NCBI RefSeq assembly: GCF_965641715.1 | Contig: NZ_OZ282453.1 | Direction: 5' to 3' (one strand) | Source of the DNA: Escherichia coli | Lineage (GTDB): Bacteria; Pseudomonadota; Gammaproteobacteria; Enterobacterales; Enterobacteriaceae | Length of the DNA: 64,000 nucleotides | Program-made: the position numbers | Shown here: piece after piece, positions 53,901-62,900 of the stretch | How the letters are laid out: each line of letters opens with the position of its first letter | How positions within the stretch are numbered: position 1 is the stretch's first letter

Positions 53901-56900
53901 ATCCAGAGCCAGCTGGATAGCCTGGTGTTGGGTGAACATTCTCAAATCGCCAGCCTGAAAGCGCAGCTCGCGGAAGCAAAATATAACCTTGAGCAGACGA
54001 TAGTGCGTGCGCCGAGCGATGGTTATGTGACCCAAGTGCTGATTCGTCCGGGTACCTATGCCGCGTCGCTGCCGCTACGTCCGGTGATGGTGTTTATACC
54101 CGATCAGAAACGACAAATCGTGGCGCAGTTCCGTCAGAACTCCTTGCTGCGACTGGCTCCTGGCGACGATGCGGAAGTGGTGTTTAATGCTCTGCCAGGT
54201 AAGGTATTCAGCGGTAAGCTGGCAGCCATTAGTCCAGCCGTTCCCGGCGGAGCTTATCAGTCGACCGGCACCTTACAGACGTTAAACACAGCGCCGGGTT
54301 CAGATGGCGTTATCGCGACCATTGAACTGGATGAGCATACTGATTTGAGCGCATTACCAGACGGTATTTACGCCCAGGTGGCGGTCTACTCTGATCATTT
54401 CAGCCATGTCTCGGTGATGCGCAAAGTACTGTTACGCATGACCAGCTGGGTGCATTACCTTTATCTCGATCATTAATCTTCGCTTTCCGCCGCTTGTTCA
54501 GGCCGCAGTTGCTGCGACTGAGCAAGCTGGTGGCGAATTTCACGCAGCATTTCATCCAGCACATACTGGACCCGCCAGGGCTGGTATTCCCGTTTACGGA
54601 AGATAGCCACCAGATCCAGCCACCATTCATACGGGTGCTGAAAGCAGGGCACCAGCGTGCCGTCTTGCAGATCGCTCTGCACACTTTTGTCTGGCGCAAA
54701 CACAATCCCCAGGTGATTTCGTGCCAGCTCCAGCGCCGATTGCGTGTTATCGCAAACGTAATTTCCCTTCACGCGATAATCCCGCACCTCTTTACTCCCG
54801 GCGACGTTGAAGCGCCAGATATTCGCGTCGTCGATCATCATCGAGTCGATCAAAATACAGGAGTGATGTTCGAGTTCGTCAGGACGGCTAATGGGATGTT
54901 TCTCAAGATAGCGCTGGCTGGCATAAGCGGTTACGGCATATTGGGTAATAAAACTGGCAACCAGCGATTCATCTTTTGGTGGGGCATAGCTGATTAAAAC
55001 ATCACAATCATCAGGAAATTCGACGCCTTCATAAAAGGCATTACGCTCAAGATTGCAGGTTTTTAGCGATAAGGTGATATCACCGATATCTTTAATTTTA
55101 TCGATTACATGTTTGGATAAATAGGTAATTATGCCGGTTGGGGCGTAGATGGTGACCCGACCACGTTTCTCATGCTTATAATCTGCAATAAAATTATTAA
55201 GCTGCTCGTTTCTGTCCAGCATGTCGTTGATGTACGGTAACAGCGCGGTACCAAAAGGTGTGAGCATCAGCTGCCGGGTGGTTCGGTCAAAGACTTTTAA
55301 ACCCACTTTTGATTCAAAATCAGCAAGGTATTTGCTGACGTTGGCCTGTGCGATGCCAAGTACAGTCGCGGCATGGCTGATATTTTCACTGGCAGCGATT
55401 ACCGAGATAATTTTTAACTCCCGGTACTTAAGTTGTAATTTTGTCATCGCAACAGCCCAATTATATATAATTTTATATATTACTATATAAATATGAATCT
55501 TGCACCGGAGAAATTGTAAGCATTACTATGCCGACTCTTTTTTATCTTATTTTAAAATGGAATACCGGACATGTTAATTAACCGCAATATTGTGGCGTTA
55601 TTTGCGTTGCCTTTTATGGCAAGCGCAACTGCTTCTGAATTATCCATTGGTGCCGGTGCGGCTTATAATGAATCGCCTTATCGCGGTTATAATGAAAATA
55701 CAAAGGCAATTCCCCTGATTAGTTATGAAGGTGATTCTTTTTATGTTCGTCAGACCACGTTAGGTTTTATTCTGTCGCAAAGTGAAAAAAATGAACTTAG
55801 CCTGACCGCATCCTGGATGCCGCTGGAATTTGACCCTGCCGATAATGACGATTATGCCATGCAACAGCTTGATAAGCGTGATAGTACGGCTATGGCGGGG
55901 GTTGCCTGGTATCACCACGAGCGTTGGGGAACCGTGAAAGCCTCTGCAGCTGCGGACGTTCTGGATAACAGCAACGGCTGGGTGGGGGAGCTATCGGTAT
56001 TCCACAAAATGCAGATAGGTCGTCTGTCGCTGACACCTGCGCTAGGCGTTCTCTATTATGACGAGAATTTCAGTGACTATTACTATGGCATTTCAGAGAG
56101 TGAGTCCCGTCGTAGCGGTCTGGCAAGTTATTCCGCGCAGGATGCCTGGGTGCCCTATGTCAGCCTGACGGCAAAATACCCGATAGGAGAGCACGTCGTA
56201 TTGATGGCGAGCGCAGGATACAGCGAGCTGCCGGAAGAGATTACCGACAGCCCGATGATTGATCGTAATGAGAGTTTTACCTTTGTCACCGGCGTGAGCT
56301 GGCGTTTTTAATTCACCGGTGGATGTCGGTGCGGCTGGCCTACGCTCTCGCACCGACTTGTATGCCTGATAAGACGTGTTAAGCGTCGCATCAGGCAATG
56401 TGCTCCTTACGTTGGATGCGGCGCGAGTGCCTTATCCAACCTACGGATGGCAATGCTTTTCCTCATTCACCCAGATCCGCATTTCGCCTTCACCCCGGTT
56501 GGCCCAGCTAAACCACGGGATAAAGGTCAGAGTTTGCGTCTGGCGTTTGGCTGGCGCGCTGTCGTAATGCCACAGCGGTTGCTGCTCTGGATTGCTCTGT
56601 TCATACCGGTAACCCGGTGCCTGGATTAAGATCTTATGGCTAAACAATCCCTTGCCTTCAAATGTCGTAAATGGCGCATCGGTGGGCAGCCACAGATTAT
56701 GCAGTGACTCGCCGTTGTCGGCCTGTTCCAGGCAATACACCAGCGGGCCGCGCTGAATCGCCACTTTTCCGGCGACGTGACGCACCAGCGGGTTACCGTA
56801 AACGCGGCGTACCGGCATCGGCAAAGTCAGATTCAGCGTATCGCCCTCCTGCCATTCGCGGGTAATGTGCAAATACCCTTTACGAATATCCTGCTCGACC

Positions 56901-59900: not shown

Positions 59901-62900
59901 AACAAGGCGAGAAAAGAGTAAAAAAAGGTGACGATTCCGACCTGAATTTAAAAGTGTGAAATGGATCAGGTGAAATTAATGTTTTTGATTAATAATCAAA
60001 AGGTAATGTGTTTAATCATTGATGAATAAGCGGGAAATTACATATCAATGCTCGAATTATCCATGACGTTACCGATTAAAGTGCAAAATGGTGGATTATT
60101 TATTTCCCGTGGCGTAGGGAGGCATCCTGCAAGGCGGCTGGAGTCATGGGAAATTATCTTTGTCGAAAAAGGTCGATTAACGATTCAGGAAGAAGAACGG
60201 ATATTTCTGGTCGATGCGGGAGAGAGTTTATTACTCTGGCCGAACCGACAACATGTTGGGGTGGAGGATTTTCCCGCCGATCTCAAATTTTACTGGCTGC
60301 ATTTTGAGGTTAAAGCGCCGGACAACGACCCTCGCTGGCTTACTCATCTTAGCGTGCCGCAACAAACGAAGGTTGTCGATCCGCAGGCGCTGGTGGCCCT
60401 GTTTCGCCAGTTCTTAAGCGAACAGGAAAAGCATCAACGCACTCCGGCGCTGGAGTTTATTGTGCTGCTCATTTTGCAGCAGCTCACCCGTGACGCGCGT
60501 CTTGATGAACAGGCCGATGGCGCAGGCACCACCCTTGCCTGGAAAGCGCAGAAACTGATCCGCACGCAATATCATCGCCCGCTTTCTACGGCGCTTCTGG
60601 CCCGCGAGCTGTACTGCAATGCCGATTATCTTGGGCGCGTCTACCGGCGGGTGTTTCATCTGACGTTAACAGAAGCAATCCATCGCCAGCGGGTGCGCGA
60701 AGCCGAAAAGCTGTTAATTAGCGAAGCGCGATCGCTCACGGAAGTGGCGGCGTTGTGCGGGTTTAATGACGTTGGCTATTTCCGGCAGATTTTTCGCAAA
60801 CACACCGGTTTAACGCCAGCAGCGTGGAAGCGGCGTTACAGCAAGGAACATATCAATTCGTAGTGCCGGGGCGATGAAGCCCCGGCGTGAGGGATTACTG
60901 CCCGTAATAGGCATTGTCTCCATGCTTACGCAGGTAGTGCTTATCCAGCAGTTCGTTTTGCATGGCAGGGAGCTGCGGCGCAAGCTGGCGCGAGAACAGG
61001 CCCATATAGGCGCACTCTTCCAGCACCACGGCGTTATGCACCGCATCGGCGGCGTTTTTTCCCCAGGCGAACGGGCCGTGAGAATGTACCAGTACCGCCG
61101 GGATTTGTGCCGGGTTCAAACCACGTTCTTCGAAGGTTTGAATGATCACTTCGCCAGTCTGGTATTCATACTCGCCGTTGATCTCCTCTGCTGTCATCTG
61201 GCGCGTGCAGGGGATGGTACCGTAAAAATAATCGGCGTGGGTGGTGCCCCAGGCGGGGAGATCCAGCCCGGCCTGCGACCAGATGGTAGCGTGGCGCGAG
61301 TGGGTATGCACAATACCGCCAATTTCGGCATAGCGACGGTAGAGCGCCAGATGCGTTGGCGTGTCGGACGAGGGCTTTTTGCTGCCTTCCACCACTTTAC
61401 CGCTGGCTATCTCAACCACCACCATATCGTCGGCGGTCATCACGTCGTACTCGACGCCGGAAGGTTTGATTACCATCCATTGCCGCGTTTCGTCTACCGC
61501 GCTGACATTGCCCCAGGTGAACGTCACCAGATGGTGAGCGGGAAGTGCCAGATTTGCCGCCAGCACGTCGGCTTTCAGTTGCTCTAACATATAAATCCAG
61601 CCTCCTGCATACGCGCTTCAATCCAGCGCCGCGCCTGAATAATCTCCAGCACCGGCTCTTTGGCTTTTTCGGTCCACATCTCAATCAGGAAAGAACCGCG
61701 ATAGTTCAGTTCATGCAGCGTTTTGAAGATGCCAACGAAATCGACGCAGCCTTCGCCAAACGGCACATCACGGAACTGTCCGGGACTTTGCTCGGTGACT
61801 GGCTGGGTGTCTTTCAGGTGGATGGCGGCGATACGGTCAATGCCCAGTTTCAGTTCGGCGGGAACATCATTGCCCCAGGCGCTGAGGTTGCCGACGTCCG
61901 GGTAGACGGTGAACCACGGCGAGGCGAGCATCTCGTCCCATTTTTTCCATTTGCTGATGGAGTTCATAAACGCGGTATCCATAATCTCCACCGCCAGCAT
62001 TACTTGTGATGCCGCCGCCTGTTCGACTGCCCACGCCAGCCCTTCAGCAAAACGTTGTTGGGTGCCTTCGTCGTGGTCTTCGTAATAGACGTCATAACCT
62101 GCCAGCTGGATTGTGCGAATGCCGAGATCGCGCGCCAGGCGAATCGCTTTACTCATTATTTCCCGCGCCCGTTCGCGCACTGCCTCGTCCCGGCTGCCAA
62201 AGGGAAAACGACGATGGGCAGACAGGCACATTGACGGAATGGCAACACCCGTTTCGATCATCGCAGTGACCAGCGAAGCACGTTGTGCGGCGCTCCAGTC
62301 AAGACGTGAGAGCCGTTCGTCGGTTTCATCCACCGACATTTCGACGAAATCAAAACCGCAGCTTTTTGCCAGCACCAGCCGCTCCGGCCAGGAGAGATCT
62401 TTCGCCAGCGCTTTTTCATAAATCCCTAACGGATGATTACGCACGCTTGCCTCCCCAGATAGCGTCGATTTGCGCATGAAAATCAGCGGCCACCTGTGCC
62501 GGATTTGCCGCGCCTGCCAGTGCTCTCCCGGCAATAAACGCTTTCACGCGGATATCTTTAAACAGCGGCAGGTCAGCAGGGGTAATCCCGCCAGTAATGG
62601 AAAGCTCAAGGCCGATATCTGAAAGCGCCTTCATGCGTGCCAGATCGGCTTCACCCCACTGTTGCCCGCTGGCCTGTGCATCACGACCGCGATGATAAAT
62701 GGCCTGCCGCACGCCAATACGATGCCAGTCGCGGGCGTCGTCCAGCGTCCAGTTACCGAACAGCTCTATCTGAATTTCACCCCCGCAGCGTTGCGCCATT
62801 GCGTGGCCTTTTTCTACCGTCGCGAGCGGCGCGGCGCAGATGATGGTCATCCAGTTAGCGCCTGCGCCAAACGCCTGTTGCGCGAGCGTTTCACCAGCGT

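Follow-up and report, generated by a model that had tools for sequence, protein, structure and literature searches.

In a 64,000-nt stretch of Escherichia coli DNA (hereafter the window, to whose full length all coordinates refer), the interval between yiaT and sgbE harbors three genes, encoding a GH127-family glycoside hydrolase, a GPH-family transporter and an AraC-family regulator. We consider it probable, at roughly 0.68, that this cassette is a self-contained and vertically inherited module for the import and cleavage of small beta-L-arabinofuranosides. Comparison of the locus with those of K-12 and of other genera indicates that the cassette is ancestral at this site and that the K-12 state is a deletion, whereas the original prediction had seen an accessory cassette inserted between two genes that are neighbors in K-12. 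The protein families are already known, and the module is new as an uncharacterised enterobacterial member of them; the chief correction is that of evolutionary direction. The three genes are the following:

56441..58411, minus strand: GH127 glycoside hydrolase of 656 aa, predicted beta-L-arabinofuranosidase (Pfam, PDB matches, Shine-Dalgarno)
58422..59822, minus strand: predicted glycoside:cation symporter of the GPH family (major facilitator superfamily, MFS), 466 aa, first gene of the operon (TIGR00792, MelB alignment)
60048..60863, plus strand: AraC-family transcriptional regulator of 271 aa (Pfam AraC_binding and HTH_18)

The gap between yiaT and sgbE measures 4583 bp, in line with the approximately 4.5 kb first reported, and an open reading frame (ORF) map places three large ORFs in it. 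The transporter and enzyme genes, 10 nt apart, form a two-gene operon divergent from the regulator, and profile matches agree with the family originally proposed for each of the three products. A RefSeq locus 99.6% identical over the region has an annotation that agrees, all three proteins being named by family.

A predicted beta-L-arabinofuranosidase and its transporter

The longest ORF of the GH127 gene (56441-58435) would yield a protein of 664 aa, the length first given for the enzyme. We rejected this start (ATG 58435) because it lies inside the transporter gene, whereas the ATG at 58411 is preceded, 6 nt upstream, by a Shine-Dalgarno sequence (AAGGAG, 58423-58418) that overlaps the TAA stop codon of the transporter, and is also the start annotated in RefSeq. 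The enzyme is thus likely to have 656 aa, and residues are numbered accordingly below. Its membership of the GH127/DUF1680 family, proposed at the outset, is borne out by matches to all three GH127 Pfam domains, PF07944 (E 1.1e-111, residues 20-435), PF20736 (E 1.3e-23) and PF20737 (E 3.2e-25), which correspond to a catalytic (alpha/alpha)6 domain together with the GH127 middle and C-terminal beta-domains.

The two closest relatives of solved structure are both beta-L-arabinofuranosidases, as found with phmmer. The best is Ara127N of Geobacillus stearothermophilus T6 (4QJY; E 3.9e-234, 782 bits), with approximately 55% identity over 629 residues aligned end to end, as counted from the printed alignment, and the second is HypBA1 of Bifidobacterium longum (3WKW; E 7e-151, 507 bits); information on their substrates and residue roles comes partly from PMC7263609 and PMC7889515. 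In the alignment to HypBA1, residues Glu322, Glu338, Cys340, Cys417 and Cys418 correspond to E318, E334, C336, C414 and C415 of our enzyme, and His142, His194 and His270 to H134, H186 and H266; the motifs YAESCAS and GCACCPPN of the enzyme are conserved as well. In HypBA1 we take Cys417 to be the nucleophile, Glu322 the acid/base, Glu338, Cys340, Cys417 and Cys418 the Zn2+ site, and the histidines to be sugar-binding residues. The enzyme is thereby predicted to hydrolyze non-reducing-end beta-L-arabinofuranosides (EC 3.2.1.185). Since its N-terminus (MNISEVDLHKLTVSDPF...) shows no signal-peptide-like segment, it is cytoplasmic, like HypBA1 and as originally suggested.

Two published datasets touch on this gene. 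A GH127 transcript of E. coli was found up-regulated 4-5-fold in an adapted strain (PMC6561948) and, since the transcript is detected in that transcriptome, the gene is expressed in at least one background. A GH127 gene was also noted among the accessory genes that co-segregate with invasiveness in adherent-invasive E. coli (AIEC), a correlation only (PMC11879602). Outside the enterobacteria, the closest homologues among the loci listed, at 71% identity, are those of Bradyrhizobium spp. (loci L076, L078 and L079), which come without GPH or AraC genes. In these three loci the GH127 gene lies directly downstream of a gene of the prolyl-oligopeptidase family (S9, beta-propeller), an arrangement that may point to glycopeptides rich in proline/hydroxyproline as substrates, and to transfer between phyla.

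The transporter belongs to the GPH family (glycoside-pentoside-hexuronide:cation symporters, TC 2.A.2; TIGR00792, 331.7 bits for a cutoff of 231.35) and can be aligned over its full length (residues 20-461, E 7e-38) with the MelB structure 4M64. Its nearest named relatives are YagG and YicJ, both under their NCBIfam equivalog cutoffs. Indeed, none of the characterised GPH carriers has an equivalog model whose cutoff it reaches, and on these scores we judge it to be a paralogue distinct from the carriers encoded by yicJ, yagG, uidB and melB.

Ancestry, loss and maintenance of the cassette

We aligned the K-12 locus to the window by blastn and compared the junction sequences. K-12 matches the window up to 56338 and resumes at 60760, and the interval is made up of two deletions and a surviving fragment:

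56339..56548: deletion 1, 210 bp absent from K-12 (blastn and junctions)
56549..56738, minus strand: ysaD, surviving internal GH127 fragment of 190 bp (89.5% identical in K-12)
56739..60759: deletion 2, 4021 bp absent from K-12 (blastn and junctions)

Deletion 1 is flanked by 6-bp direct repeats (GGCTGG), the left copy of which (56333-56338) falls within an arm of the stem-loop that follows yiaT; the endpoints of deletion 2 are essentially without microhomology. The second deletion takes most of the GH127 gene, the entire transporter gene and the control region, and with them 237 codons from the start of the regulator gene; the last 104 bp of that gene are kept in K-12 as ysaC, which is annotated as a fragment of the AraC family that lacks the N-terminus. 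The ysaD segment is annotated in the K-12 RefSeq record as an incomplete hypothetical protein. Because a published strain table shows the gene order yiaS(sgbE)-ysaC...ysaD-yiaT in K-12 (PMC12361893), we identify the two scars as the named pseudogenes ysaC and ysaD. It follows that sgbE does not come directly after yiaT in K-12, as the original prediction had stated, but is separated from it by two pseudogene fragments of the cassette itself.

To place the locus among other genera, one genome per species was scanned for the GH127 gene, and the 80 best of 265 matched loci (70-96% protein identity) were analysed, with gene order established by tblastn with the window proteins and up to 8 kb of flank fetched per locus. 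The trio of AraC, GPH and GH127 genes is intact in about 68 of the 80 species loci. The order sgbH-sgbU-sgbE / AraC / GPH-GH127 / yiaT / yiaU is found in Citrobacter (including Citrobacter youngae), Pseudocitrobacter, Enterobacter, Lelliottia and Huaxiibacter. Clustering of the flanking ORFs of the 80 loci recovered selB (53 loci), aldB (43), selA (38), avtA (23), malS (20) and yiaY (20) as recurrent neighbors, yibF being another core gene among them; the wider selAB/aldB/avtA/malS neighborhood is common to most of the 80 species and is that of the E. coli chromosome. It is because of the K-12 scars and of this gene order and neighborhood, shared across genera, that we regard the cassette as ancestral and lost in K-12.

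Two further observations were made. Citrobacter gillenii (L084, 3626-8357) and the genome of locus L083 bear a second, paralogous module, with GPH and GH127 proteins of approximately 70% identity each, in addition to the AraC-type module; in L084 a LacI-family regulator replaces AraC and the module lies between ubiX and purF. Also, the layout and protein identities of 'Chryseobacterium sp. 18061' (L025) match those of 'Citrobacter sp. 18056' (L024), and the former is probably a mislabelled or contaminated assembly.

Where it is present, the cassette is kept. The window carries the three ORFs in intact form, and pairwise Nei-Gojobori comparisons against orthologues from E. coli, E. whittamii, Citrobacter, Salmonella diarizonae and Enterobacter gave dN/dS ratios of 0.03-0.07 for the GH127 gene, 0.03-0.08 for the GPH gene and 0.05-0.11 for the regulator, similar to those of sgbE and yiaT. 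Given these low ratios, the cassette is maintained under purifying selection.

Its distribution within the species was surveyed in 5426 complete E. coli genomes, counting the locus as intact when the 4021-bp segment missing from K-12 was found at a coverage of at least 80%. The segment is intact in 2313 genomes (43%), always in single copy and on the chromosome; the K-12 junction between ysaD and ysaC is intact in 2461 (45%) and, by difference, about 650 (12%) are in other states. The cassette is therefore accessory, as first described, in the sense that it varies across E. coli, but not in the sense of a gain, since the variation arises by recurrent loss. An identical 1964-bp structure is shared by each of the 18 deletion-type rows that were sampled along the ranking, and because of this uniformity we ascribe the K-12 type to one old event; the sequences point to approximately 45% of E. 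coli, K-12 included, having lost the cassette through a single old pair of deletions. Carriers include BL21 and B strains.

Other E. coli lineages lost the cassette or its neighbors by independent deletions. O157:H7 has an intact cassette but the whole yiaJ-sgbE operon is gone, and a yiaJ fragment abuts the regulator. ST131-type B2 strains keep the cassette and have lost yiaW through yiaT, so that aldB abuts the GH127 gene. In SCU-123, aldB directly abuts sgbE, and in ETEC4071 a deletion bounded by the insertion sequence (IS) IS1 runs from selB to the regulator. The interval from yiaW to sgbE is a site of recurrent deletion in E. coli, where at least five structural states occur, the full arrangement among them. 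In the same stretches, a Fic-family gene is present just upstream of aldB in O157:H7 (L003, 1-321), ST131 (L004, 959-2254) and SCU-123 (L085, 6012-7307), and sits between yiaY and aldB where yiaY falls in the fetched stretch; SCU-123 also has a DUF4862 family gene between yiaL and yiaM in the yia operon (L085, 15561-16481).

Control region and flanking elements

The regulator combines a cupin domain (AraC_binding, residues 26-132, E 1.3e-9) with a helix-turn-helix DNA-binding domain (HTH_18, residues 184-263, E 4e-19). Among the NCBIfam models it comes closest to AraC itself, with a match along almost the entire length; at 61.1 bits for a cutoff of 208, an orthologous relationship was rejected and the protein is a member of the AraC/XylS family only. 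The divergent region separating it from the transporter gene is 225 bp long and AT-rich (GC approximately 0.39), and its conservation was read from an alignment of 68 intergenic regions, one per species. Four elements can be proposed in it:

59874..59902, minus strand: candidate activator-dependent sigma-70 promoter, with -35 TTGATA (59902-59897), a 17-bp spacer and -10 ATTAAT (59879-59874), read from the sequence
59906..59943, minus strand: conserved block of approximately 38 bp abutting the -35, candidate AraC-type regulator site (conservation over the 68 regions)
59955..59970: CRP-like site TGTGA-N6-TCAGG, read from the sequence, centred at about -95 relative to the inferred transcription start
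59983..60001: perfect 9+9 palindrome TTTTGATTA-A-TAATCAAAA, on the side nearer the regulator gene (inverted repeat, conserved across genera)

Both promoter hexamer regions are conserved over the 68 species while the spacer is not, and it is solely from this conservation that a promoter is suggested here. Within the block next to it, TC(A/G)CCTT is repeated at a spacing of 21 bp, as read by eye, and in the CRP-like site the TGTGA/TCACA half and a GATC are conserved across species. The layout, with a putative activator site next to the -35 and a CRP site upstream, would resemble that of araBAD by analogy. The palindrome may belong to the regulator promoter or act as an operator. We also observed TCAGGT(C/G) three times in the control region (at about 59866-59874, 59934-59943 and 59963-59975). 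An Rfam scan returned no riboswitch or small RNA in the leader, its only match being the naRNA4-like one, derived from a repetitive extragenic palindromic (REP) element, that is described below.

The features that border the cassette, including the two flanking genes that lie outside the module, are these:

55571..56311, plus strand: yiaT, outer-membrane protein of the MipA/OmpV family, left flank (ORF map and RefSeq annotation)
56325..56357: perfect 9-bp stem-loop just 3' of the yiaT stop, possible yiaT terminator (inverted repeat)
56363..56447: REP/BIME (bacterial interspersed mosaic element) pair of two REP palindromes (inverted repeats 56363-56397 and 56404-56447; Rfam naRNA4)
60865..60886: GC-rich hairpin GCCGGGGC-N6-GCCCCGGC, lying where the regulator and sgbE converge, between their stop codons (inverted repeat)
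60895..61590, minus strand: sgbE, L-ribulose-5-phosphate 4-epimerase, named araD by the PGAP annotation, right flank (ORF map and RefSeq)

The REP elements announced on the yiaT side are supported by inverted repeats, by the REP consensus and by an Rfam match. The palindromes are imperfect, intergenic after a stop codon and match the E. coli REP consensus, which occurs three times in the window for zero expected; the second of them overlaps the stop codon of the GH127 gene. The Rfam family naRNA4 (RF02564, a nucleoid-associated RNA derived from REP325) matches at 56363-56441 with 58.7 bits, for a gathering threshold of 59.5. This match is seen on both strands, with 58.7 and 47.6 bits, and the 210 bp of deletion 1 in K-12 include the REP element. 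A strict terminator scan of 56250-61000 found no convincing terminator after either gene; the hairpin between the regulator and sgbE has no T-run and its role as a terminator is uncertain.

Proposed function and its alternatives

In the function that we propose, the AraC-type regulator would sense the substrate or its product via the cupin domain and, together with CRP, would activate a weak promoter in the divergent region. The GPH protein would import, by cation symport, a small glycoside that other microbes free from plant extensins or pectic arabinan, the best candidates being the disaccharide Araf-beta1,2-Ara (beta-Ara2; Araf, arabinofuranose) and Araf-beta-hydroxyproline. Once inside, the cytoplasmic zinc/cysteine GH127 enzyme would remove the beta-L-arabinofuranosyl residue, and the freed L-arabinose would enter its own complete pathway, araBAD. 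No GH121, GH43, arabinose gene or other carbohydrate-active enzyme is a recurrent neighbor in the 80 species loci and, since no extracellular partner enzyme is encoded nearby, the substrate would have to come from other organisms or from plant turnover.

Such a function has precedents. In a number of E. coli operons (yicJ-yicI, yagG-yagH, uidB-uidA and melB-melA), a GPH carrier is encoded together with a cytoplasmic glycosidase; the cassette resembles them in its organization and in a transporter nearest to YagG and YicJ, but their enzyme is of family GH31, GH43, GH2 or GH4 instead of GH127. The gene for Geobacillus Ara127N, the closest solved relative and one with the same three-domain architecture, is part of a large L-arabinan utilization cluster with ABC transporters, whereas the cassette is a minimal module of three genes. 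Likeness to AraC and araBAD lies in the divergent regulator with its cupin and HTH domains, in a block of approximately 40 bp at the -35 with a repeat spaced by 21 bp and in a CRP-like site at about -95; the cassette regulator is nonetheless far below the AraC cutoff, and its binding sites are candidates only. In B. longum, an extracellular GH121 enzyme releases beta-Ara2 from the hydroxyproline-linked arabino-oligosaccharides of extensin; once taken up by a transporter, the disaccharide is cleaved inside the cell by HypBA1 to give two molecules of L-arabinose (PMC7263609). The cassette and this system have in common a GH127 enzyme that acts within the cell, identical catalytic Cys and Glu residues and zinc ligands, and a logic of import followed by cleavage. 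The cassette differs in its importer (a single-gene GPH symporter instead of an ABC transporter), in its AraC-type regulator, in having no partner near it in the 80 species comparable to the extracellular GH121/GH43 enzymes of B. longum, and in an enzyme that is nearer to that of Geobacillus than to HypBA1.

Several observations weigh against this proposal. GH127 comprises enzymes for other furanose-like sugars, and 55% identity does not fix the natural substrate. In line with the original remark that a characterised E. coli member was not known, the literature searched contained no biochemical or genetic study, that is, no enzymatic, growth or expression test, of any enterobacterial member. 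The Na+ site of MelB (Asp55, Asn58, Asp59, Asp124) is only partly kept in the transporter, where the motif DAISDP retains the two Asp residues but Asn58 is replaced by Ser and Asp124 by Asn. The ligand domain of the regulator has no close solved relative, only the DNA-binding domain matching PDB entries. The CRP-like site matches well in one half-site only, and a strict consensus sigma-70 scan (56250-61000) called no promoter in the control region, although activator-dependent promoters are commonly missed by such scans. We know of no secreted enzyme of E. coli that would produce the substrate, so that an external supplier is needed. Finally, the representatives of E. coli, E. albertii, E. fergusonii, E. 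marmotae and E. ruysiae are all absent from the best 80 of the 265 loci; those five representative genomes probably lack the GH127 gene, and for this reason an ancestral cassette requires frequent loss.

The same architecture could serve another substrate, such as a different furanoside or the glycoside of a plant secondary metabolite, and thereby a different nutrient. Beyond the breadth of the family, the silence of the literature on this clade and a transporter that falls below all characterised GPH carriers, this is favored by the fact that the sole NCBIfam match of the enzyme is the aceric-acid hydrolase model, and that GH127 structures of other specificity, BT1003 (5MQO, 318 bits) and 6EX6, are also matched. 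However, the aceric-acid hydrolase match reaches 457 bits for a cutoff of 950, under half, and covers mainly the C-terminal part, the other structures are weaker matches, and the two top structural relatives are beta-L-arabinofuranosidases from end to end, with the catalytic residues and sugar-binding histidines of HypBA1 conserved in our enzyme. We regard another substrate as unlikely. That the module would instead be coupled through an L-pentose-derived intermediate to the adjacent yiaK-sgbE operon, for L-xylulose and 2,3-diketo-L-gulonate, seems quite improbable to us. The original prediction had pointed to the sgbEUH-lyxK genes; adjacency to sgbHUE is indeed conserved in many genera, and SgbE is a paralogue of AraD that acts on L-ribulose-5-phosphate. 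Yet O157:H7 keeps the cassette without yiaJ through sgbE, in many genera, and in about half of the species loci, the trio is present but no sgb gene was matched in the flank of up to 8 kb that was fetched, the convergent genes are split by a hairpin and hence not co-transcribed, and L-arabinose is already served by araBAD. This metabolic link is thus not retained, and the adjacency looks like plain synteny.

As for its history, the absence of the cassette from K-12 and its presence in 43% of complete genomes, the REP elements at one edge and the 71%-identical Bradyrhizobium homologue, a sign that the enzyme family can cross phyla, are what one could expect if some E. coli had acquired an island horizontally between yiaT and sgbE. 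But decayed pieces of both outer genes occupy the exact site in K-12, the site is filled in the same sgbE-yiaT gene order in five other genera, and the wider neighborhood is shared by 40-50 species. Protein identity to Citrobacter is 87% for GH127, 90% for GPH and about 68% for the regulator, the same range as for the flanking gene products (SgbE 91-93%, YiaU 82%, YiaT 72%), and the GC content of the cassette genes (0.52-0.57) is that of the flanks. The annotation of the RefSeq locus shows neither integrase nor IS nor tRNA within 3 kb, no direct repeats flank the cassette, and the segment is always single-copy and chromosomal. On these grounds we rejected the genomic-island reading, which appears extremely improbable. 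Neither do we favor a decaying relic, devoid of current function in E. coli and heading for loss everywhere. Independent losses are frequent (the K-12-type scar in 2461 genomes, the deletion joining aldB to sgbE, the IS1 deletion), and PGAP flags the GH127 copy of ST131 (strain MB1341, L004 4060-4140) as a frameshifted pseudogene. However, this 1-bp change alters only the last five residues (KHCHP to TSAIRR), past the conserved WVNE end of the family, and the protein is probably functional as judged from its sequence; with three intact ORFs, dN/dS of 0.03-0.08 both within E. coli and between genera, and a GH127 transcript that is detected and regulated in E. coli (PMC6561948), a relic is very improbable. 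A vertically inherited module for small beta-L-arabinofuranosides remains the reading that we prefer.

The biology underlying this module is conventional, with a GPH carrier and a cytoplasmic glycosidase under an AraC-type regulator. We give about even odds to the further claim that the carriers, approximately 43% of E. coli including O157:H7, ST131-type B2 and B/BL21 strains, possess a working and self-sufficient system for the uptake and hydrolysis of beta-L-arabinofuranosyl disaccharides or of Araf-hydroxyproline from extensins. The recognition of ysaC and ysaD as scars of a module, within a recurrent deletion site, is useful for the interpretation of the E. coli pangenome. If our reading is true, beta-linked L-arabinofuranosides are within reach of roughly half of all E. 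coli, contrary to a recent paper on O157:H7 in plants, according to which L-Araf is not directly accessible to E. coli (PMC8489885). Such a system might also be behind the reported tendency of GH127 to co-segregate with invasiveness in AIEC (PMC11879602). The cassette would then define a strain-variable nutrient niche, relevant to the colonization of plants by Shiga toxin-producing E. coli (STEC) and to cross-feeding in the gut on products freed by bifidobacteria or from plant tissue, a niche that would have been overlooked since K-12 deleted the genes for it.

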